A stretch of DNA of 47,829 bases from an uncultured Bacteroidales bacterium (lineage in GTDB: Bacteria; Bacteroidota; Bacteroidia; Bacteroidales; UBA3663), in the NCBI GenBank assembly GCA_902776605.1, contig CACYQQ010000009.1, positions 1 through 47,829 of the forward strand. The letters are read 5' to 3'. Below the pieces are notes generated by a model. It was not told the origin of the DNA, did not search any database, and saw only the letters and a program-made list of their open reading frames with translations. The position numbers were made by a program, and so were the translations under genes. Shown piece after piece: positions 3,640-30,548 of this stretch (the first letter of the stretch is position 1; the number at the start of each line of letters is the position of its first letter).

Positions 3640-4590
3640 ATGTTAAACGTATCTTTGTCGCCTCATGTGCACAGTGGCAACAGCACACAGAAGTGTATGC
3701 TTCAGGTGCTTATTGCCCTCTGTCCAGCACTGCTCTGGTCCTTCTACCAGTTCGGCTCGGGTGCAATCATCCTGACCTTGGCCTCGGTGGCATTCTGCCT
3801 CTTGTTTGAGTTCCTGATTACAAGGTTCCTGCTCCATACGCCTTCTACCCTCGGCGATCTTTCTGCCGTGGTGACAGGTGTGCTGTTGGCCTTCAACGTT
3901 CCATCCAACTTGCCTGTATGGGTCATTGCCATCGGTGCTTTGGTCGCTATCGGCGTAGGTAAGATGGTTTATGGTGGATTGGGTGCCAACATCTTCAATC
4001 CTGCTTTGGTAGGTCGTGTGTTCCTCCTCGTGGCCTATCCTGTACAGATGACCACTTGGCCATCGCAAGCAGGTTATGCAGATGTCGAGACGGGTGCCAC
4101 ACCACTCTCTATCATCAAGCGCATCGTCAATGGCGAGAGCACATTGGCAGCTCCCGACTTCATGGATAGCTTGCTCGGTGTAACGGGCGGTTCTTTGGGT
4201 GAGGTTTCGGCCCTGGCATTGCTCTTGGGCGGCATCTATCTCCTTGTCCGCAAGACCATTACCTGGCATATTCCAGTCAGCGTGCTGCTCAGTGCCTTCG
4301 TCTTCGGCTTCCTCTTCTACGGTTGCAACATGACCTTGGCTCTTGACCAGTTGGTATGTGGCGGTATGATGTTGGGTGCCATCTACATGGCTACCGACTA
4401 TGTCTCTTCGCCAATGAACAGTCGTGGTCAGTTGCTCTATGGTTGCTGCATCGGTTTCCTGACTATCGTCATCCGTCGTTATGGCGCTTATCCTGAGGGT
4501 ATGTCATTTGCCATTCTCATCATGAATGCATTCACTCCTCTCATTAATAAATATATCAAACCACAGCGTTTCGGCGTTGTAAAAAAGTAA
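3640..4590 (+). CDS. rnfD: Rnf electron-transport complex subunit D (polytopic membrane, FMN-attachment family)
   Basis: 316 aa and highly hydrophobic. NqrB/RnfD-type blocks are GANIFNPALVGRVFLL and YMATDYVSSP. Position in operon fits. Confidence 0.92.
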   Translation: MLNVSLSPHVHSGNSTQKCMLQVLIALCPALLWSFYQFGSGAIILTLASVAFCLLFEFLITRFLLHTPSTLGDLSAVVTGVLLAFNVPSNLPVWVIAIGALVAIGVGKMVYGGLGANIFNPALVGRVFLLVAYPVQMTTWPSQAGYADVETGATPLSIIKRIVNGESTLAAPDFMDSLLGVTGGSLGEVSALALLLGGIYLLVRKTITWHIPVSVLLSAFVFGFLFYGCNMTLALDQLVCGGMMLGAIYMATDYVSSPMNSRGQLLYGCCIGFLTIVIRRYGAYPEGMSFAILIMNAFTPLINKYIKPQRFGVVKK

Positions 4591-6885: not shown

Positions 6886-9800
6886 ATGAATTATACTAAC
6901 CGTATCTGTATGCTTATCCTTGCAGGAACACTGGCTCATGAAGCAGAGGCCAAGAAAGTGGTTCTGGAGGATTTTGAAAACTATCAATTGGGACAAGAAC
7001 TTTCCATGGTGAACCGTTGGGGGCAGAATCATAGCTCCCGTTGCGTGGTGGAGAAGGACCCCTCCAATGCCAACAACAAAGTGCTCCACATCTATCTCAA
7101 CGACTGGAATACCTATTTCCCAATCACCTTGCCCGACGAGTTTGCCGGGGAGGCGTGGAAAGCTTCACAGGACTATATTACTTTCGACTTGCGACGTTCG
7201 GCCAGTGACGAGAACGACTGGAAGAAGTTCATCATCTGCCAAGGGGAGAATACCTTGTGGGAGGATGACAGCTATCCCCATCAAGGCGACAAGAACGTTT
7301 GGCAGTCACGCACTTACGCATTGAACAAAGAGGTGCCGACCAAGGGCACCCAATGGGCGTTGGGACTGCACTCCGATAAGTCCGATTACTACTTGGACAA
7401 TATCGTGTTCCGTGGAGAGTACGACAACTATCTCTATATTGCCAACGACACCACCATCGACTTCAGCGGACAGAATTCTGCCGATGCCTATAAGACATTC
7501 AATACGCCACTCAATATCCCTGAGGGTAAGAGTGTTACCCTTCTCACGGCTCGATATGCCTATTTCAATTCGCCCGTGATGGGCGAGGGTACCCTCAATA
7601 TCTATGGCGGCGGCGAACGTGCTTTCTTGGGAACGTCTGACAAGTCTTATCCCGATTGGAAGGCCTACAGCGGCGACGTACATGTCTATCCTTACAAGAA
7701 ACTTTCGTCGGGCAACGGCTTCTACGGCTTGGTGTTGATGCACAAGGGCAAGACGATGACGCCCGAGAATGCACAGGCCGATGCCGACGATGGTAAGATG
7801 AATAACTGCTTGACTCACTCCACGTTAGTGTTGCACGAGGGAGCCACCTTGGCCATCGAGGGTAGTGACAAGAACCGTGGTGCCCGCATCGGCCGACTCC
7901 AGATGGAGCAGGGTAGTACACTGATGGGTTACTACAAGAACAAGGCTTCGGCCAACAGCTATTACCTGATAGGTGGAACCAACGACGATGCTGTCTTGGC
8001 TGGACGCATTGCACCGGCTTCGGACAACAAGCAGATGCTGCTCGGCCTCATCAAGGAAGGAGCTGGTACCTACCGCATTACGGGCAATACCAACCTCATC
8101 ACCGGTGGCGTTCGCGTCGTGCGTGGCAGGGTGTTGTTCAATAACGATGCCGGTGCAGCCAAAGCCAGCAAACTGTCAGGTAGTTTGGGTACACCCGCAT
8201 CGGCTTCGACCGCTTCGCTCGTTGTGCTCCAACAGGCCATCGCTGGTGGCACGGGTCATATCTCGGCCAGCGCCAATATCTATGGCATCCTCCAGCCGGG
8301 CGACGATGGCATCGGTCATCTTGCGGTGGCTGACTATGTTTCGGGTCAGAACCTGACGCTCATTGTCCGACCTTCCACACGCATCGAGTGCCAGATTGCC
8401 TCGGCCGACAATTACGACCAAGTCGAAGTGCAAGGAGCAGTCTCCTATTATAATATCATGCAGGACTACGAAGAGTCCGATATGATGCCGCGCCTCCGCA
8501 TCCAGTTGACCAACGATGCCCAACTCCGTGTGGGTGATACCTTTACACTCTTCTCGGCCAAGAGCAAGACCTCGTATAAGGAGGTGCCTTGGCAGTTCGA
8601 TGTCCGTTTCCCGAAGGCCTATACCTGGGAGGTGGAACAACAGGAGACCGCCGACGGCTTCCAAGTCGTAGCACGTGTCACGTCGTTGGAGTACAGCGGT
8701 CAAGGCGAAAAGGAGGATAGCGATATCTTGCCAGGCGACACAACAACCGACGATGGCACTTTCGACCTTGCTGCCGAGCAGAAGGAGAATACCACATTAC
8801 GTTCCTTCGCCGACCATTTGGGCAAGTTTGTAGGTACCTGTGTGCCTACCTGGAGAATCAACGTCGATAATGATAATGACGTCCGTACCAGCCTCATTGC
8901 CAATCAGTTCAATGCCGTGGTGTGCGAGAACGAAATGAAGTTCGATGCCACCGAACCCAGTCGTGGAGAGTTCTCCTACGGCTCGGGCGACCAACTCATC
9001 CACTTGGCGCAGCGCCACCATCTGTATGTGCGTGGTCACGCTTTGGCTTGGCATTCACAAGTGCCGACTTGGTTGACCTCCGACGGCACGAAGAACAGCA
9101 ACAACCTGTCGCGCCAGGAACTCCTTGCCATCCTCAAGAACCACATTTTCAACGTCGTAGGTCACTGGAAGGGCAAGATCCAGGAGTGGGACGTCGCCAA
9201 CGAAGTGCTCGATGACAACCAGACCAGCATCAACTCCAATCCGAAGGCCTACGACCTCCGTCCCTCCGTTTGGGCAACCGGCATTGGCGAGGATTTCCTC
9301 GATTCGGCATTCGTTTGGGCGCATCAAGCCGACCCCGATGCCAAGTTGATTCTCAACGACTATGGCGTTGAAGGCAAGGGTTGGGGCAAGACCGAGGCAC
9401 TCTACAACTTGGCCTCTCGTCTGCGCAAAAGCGGCATCCCGATTGACGGCGTGGGTCTCCAATGTCACATGGATGCCGGTTTGAACTACATCAGTAGCAT
9501 CGAACAGAACATTGCCCGTTACCAGAAGGCCAACTTCCTGTGCCGCATCACCGAGTTGGATTTGGGTATCGACAACAACACCGCCGCTGCCCTCCAGCAA
9601 CAGGGAGAGGACTTCTACCGACTGGCACGCATCGCCATGAAATATGACAACTGCGGCATGCTCATGATTTGGGGCTTGACCGACGACCTCACTTGGCGCT
9701 CAGGCCGCCGTCCTTTACTCTACGATGCCAACAATCAACCCAAACCAGCCTATTACGGAGTGCATGCTGCTCTCCGTCAGGCCGATGGTCAGGAACTGAC

Positions 9801-27683: not shown

Positions 27684-27702
27684 ACATACACATCTACTCG
27701 AC

Positions 27703-27742
27703 AAGCCGCAGAAATATCCTCACAAAGATATTTCTGCGGCTT
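27703..27742. terminator. Strong terminator hairpin at the end of the lipid locus (probably bidirectional)
   Basis: AAGCCGCAGAAATATC-ctcacaaa-GATATTTCTGCGGCTT, a perfect 16-bp stem 20 nt after the thioesterase stop. Confidence 0.75.
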
Positions 27743-27843
27743 GCTTATTGATTAACGCTACCAATTTTTCGTCAAATTGATGAGCAAAATACAAAACTAT
27801 ACACATTTATGATAAGGGTATAGTTGTCACTATACTGGCCATA

Positions 27844-27939
27844 TCACTTCTTCGGAGGATTATTGCCCCGCCCATTTCCAGAAGGTCTACCAGTTGTGCT
27901 TGGACCATTTGCAGGTCTTGGATTTGAACCTTTTGCCAT
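27844..27939 (-). CDS. Candidate 31-aa Gly/Pro/Asn/Arg-rich small ORF, third cistron of the A+T-rich islet
   Basis: Own translation: MAKGSNPRPANGPSTTGRPSGNGRGNNPPKK-stop. The ATG lies 4 nt after the TPR gene stop. Below the ORF-track size cut-off. No independent support. Confidence 0.3.
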   Translation of the reverse strand: MAKGSNPRPANGPSTTGRPSGNGRGNNPPKK

Positions 27940-27943
27940 ATTG

Positions 27944-28780
27944 TTACATCTCCTTTCTTTGTTTGATTAAAGCAGATTGAGCTTCTGCATATATTTGTTT
28001 CAATATTTTTATCTCTTTTCCAGCTATATCACAGAATCCGTTTGCACGGAGCCAATTCATAGTTTCTTCTATAAAACTAAGGCATTGTTCAAAATCCGTA
28101 TGAAGTAATTGCAGTCGAGCAATTCGTGGATAGTTGGCAAAATATCGAGGGTTAAGAATGCTTGATTTTCTAAAGAAATCATAAGACTTTTCATATAAAT
28201 ATTGTTTCTCGTTGTCTCCTTCCTGTGATATTTTTAACAAATCCTCCAATTGTTGCAAATATACCAAGCCTAAATCATGATAAGCTTCATACATGTATCC
28301 ATCAATCTTTACACATTGTTCGAAACAAGATTTTGCCTCATCATACTTTTTATAAATATCAAGGTATAATCTGCCTTTGTGTAACCAAGCCAATGTATTA
28401 CTGCTATCACAATCGATGGCGATTTCAATATCTTTCAACGACTCATCATAATTGCCCAATTGACCTGAAATATAGCTTTTCAGTCTATAGGCTTCACTAT
28501 ATCTGGGATGTGCAGTCAGCACGTTGTTCACAATGAGCTGTGCATCTTGTATATTGTTAGATTGAAGCGCTTGAACGCCACTTAACAGAGACATTAAACC
28601 TTCTTGATCAATATCTCCTACAGTTTCAATTATCGTATTGTCATCTTTTAGAGTATATATATAGTTGAAACCTATAGCGCTTTTATTGAAATTCAACCAT
28701 TTCAAGGCCTCATCAATATTTTTAGCTCCCAGCAATCTTGAGTCACCTAACTTAAAAATATTGGTTGTTAAAGTTGCCAT
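27944..28780 (-). CDS. Tetratricopeptide-repeat (TPR) protein, 278 aa, cytoplasmic
   Basis: TPR-like 34-aa helical pairs (SEAYRLKSYISGQLGNYDESLKDIEIAIDCDSSN, TLAWLHKGRLYLDIYKKYDEAKSCFEQCVKID, YEAYHDLGLVYLQ). No signal peptide. A+T-rich codon usage unlike the neighbours. Confidence 0.75.
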   Translation of the reverse strand: MATLTTNIFKLGDSRLLGAKNIDEALKWLNFNKSAIGFNYIYTLKDDNTIIETVGDIDQEGLMSLLSGVQALQSNNIQDAQLIVNNVLTAHPRYSEAYRLKSYISGQLGNYDESLKDIEIAIDCDSSNTLAWLHKGRLYLDIYKKYDEAKSCFEQCVKIDGYMYEAYHDLGLVYLQQLEDLLKISQEGDNEKQYLYEKSYDFFRKSSILNPRYFANYPRIARLQLLHTDFEQCLSFIEETMNWLRANGFCDIAGKEIKILKQIYAEAQSALIKQRKEM

Positions 28781-28782
28781 AT

Positions 28783-29634
28783 TTATTTAATTTTGGAGAA
28801 TACATAATCTATACTACTAGTGTCAGTGTCACCAAACTTATTCTTTGTCCCTTTATTATGCTCCGTACGAATTGAGTCCGGTGAAATGTCTTTCATTTTG
28901 CAAGAAAAACAGTGTGCAACGGTATCCCAATCTTTCTTTCCGGGTTGAAGAGGCTTTAGAATCATCTTTATAAACAAAGATAATTGCTTCAATGTTCCAC
29001 ACCAATTAAAACGCTCAAAATGCTCATTTTTGCGTAGAGGGACATTGAACATATGAACAAAGTCGTACATTGCACTTGGGCCAGAGTCAATCAACATCCT
29101 TTCATTACACCAATAGTATATTTGACGTAACTGATCCTCATTAAATTTTGTGACCAAAATGGGCAAACAGTCTTCTGTCGCGCTCAGATATCCTCTATTA
29201 TTGATTTGTGACGAGAGTAAATCTAAACGCTCAAAGATAAAATCCGCAAACTTCATCCAATCGTTCCAATATACAGACATGTCTTTGCGCTCAAATACAT
29301 GAAACCTTGGCACATTCAATAAAGTATCAAATACACTCTTTAATGTGTATGTACTATTTGAGACATGAAAAGACTCCTCAATATCAGTCCAAGGTATCTC
29401 ATTGACGGTATTCCATCCAACTATACGAAGAATGATACAAAGTATAATGGGCATCTTATCTTGTGTGCCCTCAAACTCAAAATGTATTTCATTTTGATTA
29501 TCTGCATTATAAAAAAGACTCAAGAAATCTTCTGGCCTTGGTTTTGTTTCCGAATTAAGAAACTTGTAAGAGATAAGCCGAAAATAGATTTCGCGCAATT
29601 GGTCTTTTGTCCATGGGGTAGGTAGCTTGTTCAT
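28783..29634 (-). CDS. Hypothetical protein, 283 aa, with an internal two-fold domain duplication
   Basis: Repeat 1 is WTKDQLREIYFRL...EDFLSLF...FEFEGTQDKMPIILCIILRI...WTDIEESF. Repeat 2 is FNEDQLRQIYYWC...YDFVHMF...FERFNWCGTLKQLSLFIKMIL...WDTVAHCF. No motif I can assign. 2-nt gap to the TPR gene. Confidence 0.7.
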   Translation of the reverse strand: MNKLPTPWTKDQLREIYFRLISYKFLNSETKPRPEDFLSLFYNADNQNEIHFEFEGTQDKMPIILCIILRIVGWNTVNEIPWTDIEESFHVSNSTYTLKSVFDTLLNVPRFHVFERKDMSVYWNDWMKFADFIFERLDLLSSQINNRGYLSATEDCLPILVTKFNEDQLRQIYYWCNERMLIDSGPSAMYDFVHMFNVPLRKNEHFERFNWCGTLKQLSLFIKMILKPLQPGKKDWDTVAHCFSCKMKDISPDSIRTEHNKGTKNKFGDTDTSSIDYVFSKIK

Positions 29635-29653
29635 ATTTTTTTTATTTTGGGTG

Positions 29654-29661
29654 CAAAGATA
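29654..29661 (-). promoter_or_regulatory. -7 promoter box (TATCTTTG on minus strand) for the A+T-rich islet operon
   Basis: Plus strand reads CAAAGATA, 20 nt upstream of ATG 29634. Confidence 0.5.
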
Positions 29662-29816
29662 TAGTATTTTTAGGACATAATCTCCGAAAAAAGTTTCAAA
29701 AAAGTTTCAAACTTAAAAAAGTGATTTTTGTGCCAAAAATCTATGCCCCTCATCAATAAATATGTCTAATCAATCATAAATTTATCATTTCTTGCGCTCT
29801 TTTTCAAAATATTTAT

Positions 29817-29870: not shown

Positions 29871-30548
29871 ATGCTTATGAAAAAGACTTTACTCCTTGCA
29901 GCCTTGGCATTGACCAGTATGGCTGCTGTGGCACAAGAGACATTTACCCGCGAGATGCCTTGTAAGAATGACTTTGGTCAGGTGATTGCCAACAAGATGG
30001 GCACCATCTGTCTGCCTTATGCAGCCGAGCCATCGGATTGCTCGGTATATAAACTGGTGTCGGCTTCGGCTCAGGAATGGGTGTTCCAGCAGGTGACCAG
30101 CATGGAGGCCAATACACCATACGTCTTCGTCGTCGATAACAACACTACGCTCGAAGCCTCCTTCACCAAGGTGGGCGAAGAGGTGGCTTGCCAGAATCCA
30201 GTAGCCGATGCAGCTGGTGTAGAGGGCGCTTTTGTTGGAACCTATCAGCGCAAGATGCTTCGTGGCCAGAAGATGTATTTCCTGTCGCACGACAAGATCA
30301 ACTTCAACAATGGACAGCCCATCGTCGCTACTCCTTATCGCGCCTATTTCTCGGCCGACGTGATGCCAGCCGGTGAAACTATCTCCGACAACCTGAAGTT
30401 GACTTTCCTCTCAGCCAACGATGAGGGTACGACTGCCATCGACGCTACTGCCCTGAAGGAGGAAGCTGAAACTGCAGTTGGCAGCCAGAACATCGGTTTG
30501 AAGCAGGGCCGTTACAACATCAACGGCAAGAAGGTCGTCGTGAAGTAA
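29871..30548 (+). CDS. Small secreted protein of unknown function with T9SS-like C-terminal tail
   Basis: Signal peptide MLMKKTLLLAALALTSMAAVAQE (alternative start at 29877). The C-terminus GTTAIDATAL...GLKQGRYNINGKKVVVK resembles the end of T9SS sorting domains. Confidence 0.6.
   Translation: MLMKKTLLLAALALTSMAAVAQETFTREMPCKNDFGQVIANKMGTICLPYAAEPSDCSVYKLVSASAQEWVFQQVTSMEANTPYVFVVDNNTTLEASFTKVGEEVACQNPVADAAGVEGAFVGTYQRKMLRGQKMYFLSHDKINFNNGQPIVATPYRAYFSADVMPAGETISDNLKLTFLSANDEGTTAIDATALKEEAETAVGSQNIGLKQGRYNINGKKVVVK

Follow-up and report, generated by a model that had tools for sequence, protein, structure and literature searches.

In a 47,829-nucleotide stretch of DNA from an uncultured Bacteroidales bacterium (lineage UBA3663, contig CACYQQ010000009.1; this whole stretch is called the window below), a short A+T-rich islet carries three genes on the minus strand. 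The genes, which we call A, B and C, encode an orphan protein with two tandem domains, a tetratricopeptide repeat (TPR) protein and a 31-residue microprotein. We tentatively propose that this cassette, which Bacteroidales exchange horizontally, may serve in biological conflict or defence as an accessory module built on the TPR-microprotein pair, probably against phages or through an abortive, toxin-like response. A, B and C have no match in PADLOC, so that a conflict function is argued from genomic context. By sequence, C is a member of a large microprotein family, so far undescribed and mostly found without A or B.

The cassette, its alleles and its neighbourhoods

The features of the islet, in window coordinates, are the following.

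29634 to 28783, minus strand: gene A, open reading frame (ORF) of 283 aa
28780 to 27944, minus strand: gene B, ORF of 278 aa, TPR protein
27939 to 27844, minus strand: gene C, ORF of 31 aa, MAKGSNPRPANGPSTTGRPSGNGRGNNPPKK
27844-29634, minus strand: whole operon, with -7 box, A, B, C and terminator
29654-29661, minus strand: -7 box TATCTTTG (TAnnTTTG), Bacteroidetes-type, 19-20 nt before the ATG of A at 29634
27702-27743: bidirectional intrinsic terminator, perfect 17-bp stem with an 8-nt loop
~27600 to ~29870: full extent of the low-GC islet, including its AT-rich promoter region, from a 200-nt GC profile
28150-28250: approximate point within gene B at which allele classes have recombined

The GC content of the cassette is 35.5%, against 50.8 +/- 2.4% in the remaining 1.8-kb tiles of the window (z = -6.5), of which the lowest reaches 44.8%. 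At third codon positions, the GC fraction is 0.30 in B and 0.37 in A, compared with 0.54-0.76 in the window's other 25 long ORFs. The first-pass annotation, made by eye from the letters of the window, had called the islet A+T-rich, and the computed profile bears this out; the span that it gave (27743-29700) is indeed low in GC, but its exact bounds did not hold, the low-GC zone being slightly wider. Across hosts of 34-51% GC the cassette keeps a GC content of 30-38%, and it is intrinsically low in GC irrespective of the host.

The minus-strand unit of three ORFs agrees exactly in coordinates and sizes with that annotation, with gaps of 2 nt between A and B and 4 nt between B and C. The box that had been placed upstream of A is present at the expected spacing, and in each of the six cassette loci examined a TAnnTTTG box precedes A; given what is established about Bacteroidetes promoters, we infer that TATCTTTG has promoter activity. 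At the other end, the strong hairpin said to bound the islet was recovered as a perfect stem, and this terminator is common to the cassette and a convergent thioesterase gene. A strong hairpin terminator lies 3' of C in every C-bearing lineage and never between B and C. The cassette thus has one conserved transcription-unit architecture, promoter-A-B-C-terminator.

No integrase, transposase, bounding direct repeat or insertion scar was found in or around the islet, as had been noted before for the first three. The idea that homologues might travel in prophages was not borne out either, A and B being absent from 2.9 million IMG/VR viral contigs. Judged by integrase or transposase, bounding repeats and viral carriage of A or B, the islet does not qualify as a mobile element. 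A hidden RNA gene was also considered and rejected, as no Rfam family matched in the islet.

The public data searched contain five independent cassette lineages, and all context statistics given here are therefore to be read as small-sample values; JGI metagenomes added only two further short cassette contigs. Between the same flanking genes as in the window, cassettes are carried by the metagenome-assembled genomes (MAGs) L006-L008, one of which is an NCBI "Bacteroidales bacterium", and L009-L010. Identities along this site are as follows.

Window against L006/L008: flanks 94-98%; 27700-28150 (3' part of B, C and terminator) 97-100%; 28200-29800 (A and the 5' two-thirds of B) 63-74%
Window against L009: flanks 82-90%; 27989-28189, 81-90%; 28289-28889, 98-100%

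On these comparisons the cassette alleles are mosaic and do not track the genomic background, with an apparent breakpoint inside B at ~28150-28250. The synonymous divergence (dS) of A between the window and L006 is ~1.6 where the flanks differ by ~4%, which puts the divergence of the alleles far earlier than the split of the genomes. A is absent from 24 of 24 species representatives of the same genus and from all 16 genomes of other families of the order. Decayed copies also occur: in L005, A is truncated after ~155 codons, and L165 has a frameshifted A together with a 2.8-kb insertion between A and B that contains IS1595, an insertion into the cassette and not one of its components. With divergent alleles that recombine at this one site in related MAGs, the cassette is not a private recent insertion, and the comparisons identify it as a dispensable, horizontally exchanged accessory locus.

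Next to the cassette, the window encodes a 225-aa signal-peptide protein (29871-30548, plus strand) that shares 84-89% identity with its L006/L008 orthologue, against 94-98% for the surrounding genes, and L006 has ~350 extra bases with a 62-aa ORF between the gene for this protein and A. The variable zone therefore reaches slightly beyond the cassette.

Elsewhere, the order A-B-C was found at three unrelated sites (L002, L003 and L015) and A-B only at a fourth (L011-L014), and the A-B junction is tight or overlapping in every lineage (+7 to -14 nt). Defence or toxin-antitoxin genes adjoin the cassette at all four of these sites (a small sample), but not at the window site. In L003, MkoA (5.8e-125) and MkoB (1.2e-27) lie directly downstream; Mokosh, a nuclease-NTPase system, has been validated by experiment (10.1101/2025.07.10.664194). 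L002 has PDC-S01 (1.8e-178) upstream, and downstream an MkoA-like helicase (1.5e-75), an IetA-like ATPase (3.9e-21) and, just beyond the cassette, a small convergent radical-SAM gene with a weak pVip match. PDC-S27 (5.4e-178) is found in L015 and a HepT/MNT pair in L011-L013. The neighbourhood check proposed in the first-pass annotation thus came out in favour of linkage, A-B being kept together at four unrelated sites, all beside defence or toxin-antitoxin genes. The two outcomes which that annotation had named as contrary to its reading were not what we saw: the cassette is not family-wide with normal composition, and its homologues are not scattered singly.

The cassette in L002 adjoins a seven-gene minus-strand block (L002:11992-20879) that consists of the radical-SAM gene (184 aa), family-less ORFs of 158, 68, 527 and 497 aa, the 1046-aa MkoA-like helicase and the IetA-like AAA ATPase. 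This block looks like a composite or undescribed defence system.

Products of the three genes

Protein A consists of two copies of an alpha/beta domain of ~90-130 aa. Its halves are homologous (residues 3-93 against 159-247, hhalign probability 95%, E = 2.9e-8), which confirms an earlier claim of a duplicated domain. Relatives are extremely few, 4-6 overall, with four among 5.8 billion protein clusters and five HMMER matches in 1.84 billion representatives, the window's own protein included, and searches of Pfam, NCBIfam, PADLOC and PHROGs with A gave no match. Against PDB sequence profiles, the best match was a leucine-rich repeat (E 0.054), which we judged spurious. An AlphaFold2 (AF2) model built from an alignment of 7 sequences (predicted local distance difference test score, pLDDT, 80.5; predicted template-modelling score, pTM, 0.58) shows two alpha/beta modules; the best Foldseek matches of the model, at E 1.8 in PDB and 0.15 in BFVD, are not significant. 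The label "novel fold" is provisional, because the alignment is so shallow.

Protein B was indeed confirmed as the TPR protein it had been taken for: it passes the Pfam cut-offs of PF13431 (TPR_17, 30.8 bits against 24.4), PF13181 (TPR_8, 27.8 against 25.7) and PF07719 (TPR_2, 27.2 against 27.0), and a TPR superhelix was modelled. In the AF2 model (pLDDT 93.5, pTM 0.88), a predicted N-terminal beta-alpha-beta-beta domain (residues 1-55) is followed by 11 antiparallel TPR helices (59-277), or ~5.5 TPRs, and both A and B are predicted to be soluble folds. Foldseek returned 437 PDB matches at E <= 0.001, headed by consensus TPRs and OGT TPR domains; the nearest structures are consensus TPRs, the TPR domains of OGT and SPINDLY (SPY), MamA and PilF/PilW. 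Sequence and structure searches gave only generic TPR matches for B and no functional clue beyond peptide or protein binding, and neither a helix-turn-helix (HTH) profile match nor a known output domain was found in it. The PADLOC and Foldseek searches of the two large proteins, which had been suggested as a route to a defence family, thus led to none, leaving A an orphan and B a generic TPR protein. B is acidic in all lineages, with a pI of 5.1-5.5 and a net charge of -6 to -13.

The product of C in the window reads NGPSTTGRPSGNGRGN, followed by NPPKK and the stop. C follows B in four of the five cassette lineages and is the best-conserved part of the cassette, with 74-90% identity between lineages whose A proteins share only 33-65%. 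It has a net charge of +5 to +10 and contains no acidic or hydrophobic residues. Between cassette lineages, the near-identical L009 apart, the proportion of synonymous differences in C (pS, 0.40-0.89) far exceeds that of non-synonymous ones (pN, 0.06-0.20). In unsaturated between-lineage comparisons, the ratio of non-synonymous to synonymous rates (dN/dS) is 0.11-0.16 for C and 0.09-0.29 for A, and between lineages it is 0.11-0.30 for B; the closest pairs, with few changes, reach up to 0.48, the value for A in one 91%-identical pair. A, B and C are under purifying selection, and all are real genes. For the 31-aa ORF, which had been listed only as a small reading frame rich in a few residues, this is established by pS against pN and by the codon-family switches described below.

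In L015, the most divergent cassette lineage, C lies 273 nt from B, and the interval holds a 33-aa, strongly acidic ORF (L015:3392-3493, MSWNSDADHSQYDYDNHANQMNPNNDEYWHSRE) that is not seen in the other lineages. This ORF could encode a counter-charged partner for C.

The C microprotein family

The 16-residue motif shared by the C family, N-x-P-S-T-T-G-[NKR]-P-S-G-x-G-R-G-N, has a short basic tail behind it. We defined the family as ORFs of 23-72 aa that end in the motif and such a tail, a definition that includes the C of the window. The C core was back-translated to a degenerate DNA pattern and scanned over a 596-Gb genome collection, in which ~0.02 chance matches are expected by our own arithmetic from the specificity of the pattern. 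It matched at least 120 genome loci and 21 IMG/VR viral contigs. The hosts among the matches listed include Bacteroidota, Alpha-, Beta- and Gammaproteobacteria, Campylobacterota, Chloroflexota, Myxococcota and Planctomycetota, and further Acidobacteriota, Gemmatimonadota, a Ruminococcus MAG and Thermoplasmata archaea. Members occur across numerous bacterial phyla, in archaea and in prophages. A profile search with C yielded at least 1,654 protein clusters, all named "hypothetical".

Several properties of these matches mark them as coding. The motif is in frame in all 141 loci, the ORF has a median length of 41 aa and is no longer than 70 aa in 125 of 126 cases, and the motif is C-terminal, with a stop within 15 codons downstream in 134 of 140 ORFs. 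The Asn at position -2, which the pattern left unspecified, was present in 133 of 142. The pattern also left room for Thr, Cys, Trp or Arg in place of Ser at two columns, and for Ser in place of Arg at another; despite this freedom, Ser, Ser and Arg were found in 140 of 140, by way of unrelated codon families (AGY/TCN and AGR/CGN). Such switching between codon families that keeps Ser and Arg settles the sense strand as the coding one. Antisense coding of the C region is therefore rejected, the antisense frame sharing the wobble positions of the sense frame.

No Pfam, NCBIfam or PHROG model covers the C family, and the motif strings had no match in ~8.4 million full texts of the literature. A tblastn search of C-type peptides against annotated phages and plasmids also gave no match, for which the low-complexity filter is the probable cause, so that the result is not evidence of absence. 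Gene callers overlooked the microprotein in most loci examined. In some members the motif is duplicated in tandem or appended to other small domains, and in some the N-terminal extension resembles late embryogenesis abundant (LEA) or seed maturation (SMP) proteins (Pfam SMP 0.0042, Ifi-6-16 1.6e-5). In clusters P0063 and P0097, the motif is fused to an unrelated domain of ~60 aa. The IMG/VR contig L148 carries the motif (8608-8649 in plus-strand coordinates) as the C-terminal tail of an open frame of ~96 aa on the minus strand (~3933-4223 counted along the reverse complement), whose N-terminal part has, by eye, the look of a small beta-grasp or ubiquitin-like domain (...TVEQLVIQENLHGRDIIVDG...).

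Profiles of A and B matched none of the other C-family loci examined. When ~1,000 neighbouring ORFs were clustered and the 70 nearest neighbours were censused with Pfam and PADLOC, no universal partner of the family emerged, and the neighbours show lineage-specific synteny only. One such case comes from marine Gammaproteobacteria (Neptunomonas, Pseudoalteromonas and Vibrio), in which a conserved protein of ~134 aa with an N-terminal zinc-ribbon-like CxxC...CxxC is encoded convergently, 1-64 nt after the microprotein gene (9 loci, including L025, L027, L038, L094, L095, L103 and L104); some of the microproteins in this group have an SMP/LEA-like N-terminal extension.

Conflict genes recur among the neighbours. 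A same-strand neighbour of the C-type gene in L022 is pVip (4e-79), and also on the same strand, at other loci, are bpMoxR and AAA ATPases, an integrase, a Panacea antitoxin, a Replic_Relax protein and two repeat proteins, one with ankyrin repeats (752 aa) and one with TPRs (875 aa). In L164, a SLOG-type LDcluster4 protein is encoded on the same strand beside a peptide nearly identical to the C of the cassette, with an AAA_14/DUF4143 ATPase convergent downstream. These neighbours are suggestive of a possible enrichment of the C family near conflict genes. The same Bacteroidales-like contig (L164:432-5853) encodes a 1625-aa GT2 and methyltransferase protein, then LDcluster4 and then the C-type gene.

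The strict conservation of a predicted disordered peptide, whose 16-residue motif is kept in all 140 members sampled, implies a conserved binding partner.

A possible function and its alternatives

If the cassette is a conflict module, the acidic TPR protein B would be a scaffold whose groove binds an extended peptide. A role of B as a peptide binder is inferred from its modelled superhelix, closest to the peptide-binding TPR domains of OGT and SPY, and from the negative charge of B and positive charge of C. The best candidate ligand would be the co-encoded polycationic C, or a phage ligand resembling C, and the C-terminal motif of C may be a modular short linear motif for a widely conserved, probably anionic, cellular target. 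The orphan A would be a lineage-specific partner, a sensor or an adaptor; in the mosaics, A travels with the 5' two-thirds of gene B, the N-terminal part of the protein. The output would then be control of C, by release or sequestration on infection.

Several observations weigh against this proposal. No family of PADLOC-DB v2.0.0 was matched by A, B or C at E <= 1, and no nuclease, NTPase, protease, pore or other effector is recognisable in any of the three, in line with the earlier remark that the large proteins have no recognised catalytic motif. The defence association comes from only four independent contexts, and at the window site the cassette is flanked not by defence genes but by a lipid locus of aryl-polyene-like type and a 5'-nucleotidase gene. 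AAA_14/DUF4143 ATPases, seen in L002 and L164, look common in such genomes, and an acidic pI like that of B is common in cytosolic proteins. PDC-S01 and PDC-S27 are candidates only (10.1101/2024.07.25.605194). Most C-family members stand alone, among heterogeneous and often ordinary neighbours. The lineage of L011-L014 and L165 has no C, its third gene being a coiled-coil ORF instead (L011:2918-3394, 158 aa; L165:9847-10227, 126 aa), which may be a functional replacement for C. Finally, the deep allelic divergence could reflect horizontal replacement without diversifying selection, since dN/dS is below 1. Of the first-pass suggestion of an accessory conflict system, the foreign, self-contained operon thus stands and the defence neighbours at four of four other sites agree with it, but A, B and C match no PADLOC model and show no recognisable effector domain, and the conflict role is putative.

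Other explanations account for part of the same evidence. C might be a hydrophilin-like, disordered protective or regulatory microprotein, binding for example nucleic acid or the ribosome, with A-B as a lineage-specific chaperone or regulator, that is, a stress or housekeeping-accessory module. The spread of the C family over many phyla, mostly alone among ordinary genes, would suit such a role, as would the LEA/seed-maturation-like extension of some members, the lack of hydrophobic and acidic residues in C and the lack of defence neighbours at the window site. However, A-B is extremely rare, patchy, low in GC, allele-swapped and decaying, unlike a housekeeping helper, and all four other sites abut defence or toxin-antitoxin genes; we regard this explanation as rather unlikely. 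A selfish, addiction-like module is a further candidate, in which B would neutralise a toxin, C or A, and the cassette would persist by post-segregational killing and hitch-hiking in variable islands, with no anti-phage role. The tight three-gene operon with a small basic last gene, the acidic partner B for the basic C, the HepT/MNT and other island genes nearby, and the patchy distribution with frequent decay are all in keeping with it. Yet A, B and C match no toxin or antitoxin family (Pfam, NCBIfam, PADLOC and PHROGs), C homologues by the thousand occur without B, which is hard to square with an unneutralised toxin, and one lineage keeps A-B without C, so that this too appears unlikely.

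Much less can be said for the remaining explanations. Signalling of the RRNPP or arbitrium type, with B as a TPR receptor that senses processed C and regulates A or neighbouring genes, would explain a small peptide gene directly after a TPR gene whose fold is confirmed; but C has no hydrophobic, signal-like stretch and is almost invariant across phyla, with no diversification into pherotypes, B has no HTH or known output domain and its N-terminal 55 residues are beta-alpha-beta-beta, and the host is a member of Bacteroidales, not of Firmicutes or their phages. We consider it very improbable. The same holds for a cluster of ribosomally synthesised and post-translationally modified peptides, with C as the precursor, A as the modifying protein and B as the recognition scaffold: a small Ser/Thr/Gly-rich peptide is encoded beside two proteins of unknown function, and L002 has the small radical-SAM gene convergent just downstream, whereas A and B contain no known modifying-enzyme, protease or transporter domain, no enzyme commonly neighbours the C family, and the conserved part of C is its C-terminal core and not a leader. 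That the islet is a non-functional remnant, or a set of chance ORFs in an AT-rich spacer, is the least credible explanation and is already refuted for the window copy; broken copies do exist, but the three genes are under purifying selection with conserved operon signals, the predicted folds are confident and codon switching preserves Ser and Arg in C.

A broader scheme, which we think unlikely to hold as a whole, is that the C motif docks onto a universally conserved target, for instance the ribosome, nucleic acid or some other core machine, and that conflict systems (the A-B cassette, viperin, SLOG, MoxR-VWA, ankyrin and TPR proteins) have each adopted C independently, as an effector, trigger or decoy that they have in common. 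Under this scheme, A-B would serve the microprotein as its dedicated pair of TPR receptor and adaptor, with an A fold not yet in PDB or BFVD.

Comparison with known systems sets the conflict-module proposal in context. Like PDC-type operons found by co-localisation in defence islands, the cassette is compact, rare, patchy and compositionally foreign, has no recognised enzyme domains, has the validated system Mokosh, the candidates PDC-S01 and PDC-S27 and a HepT/MNT pair among its neighbours, and undergoes gain, exchange and loss. Unlike them, it has no similarity in PADLOC v2.0.0, its window site is outside a defence island, and the family of its microprotein reaches far beyond the system. With RRNPP/arbitrium systems (AimR-AimP) it has in common that the TPR gene is directly followed, within the operon, by a small peptide gene. 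It differs from them in the near-invariance of C, which has no export signal, in the absence of an HTH or output domain from B, in the obligatory linkage to a third, orphan protein and in its Bacteroidales host. The structures most similar to B (Foldseek E 1e-7 to 1e-6) are the TPRs of OGT/SPINDLY, MamA and PilF/PilW, whose roles are the binding of extended Ser/Thr/Pro-rich peptides or assembly. The likeness is confined to the fold (12-17% identity); B has no catalytic domain, and these proteins do not contain its N-terminal beta-alpha-beta-beta domain. Hydrophilins and LEA/SMP proteins are, like C, Gly-rich, highly hydrophilic and predicted to be disordered, and some family members have an SMP-like extension. 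Unlike them, C has a nearly invariant 16-residue motif in strict C-terminal placement and no Pfam membership, and a nearly invariant C-terminal motif therefore points to a specific binding partner rather than to bulk protective properties.

Should the cassette turn out to act as a defence or abortive module, it would be a new system made from two protein families without described relatives, one of them with an unmatched fold, and its mechanism, in which a TPR scaffold sequesters or releases a peptide with no recognisable enzyme, would set it apart from what is usual in known systems. At one fixed chromosomal position, gut Bacteroidales are also seen to swap alleles of this locus. Whatever the cassette does, its microprotein family offers a concrete, testable lead, and finding what C binds could uncover a small regulator or inhibitor, new to science, of some core process.

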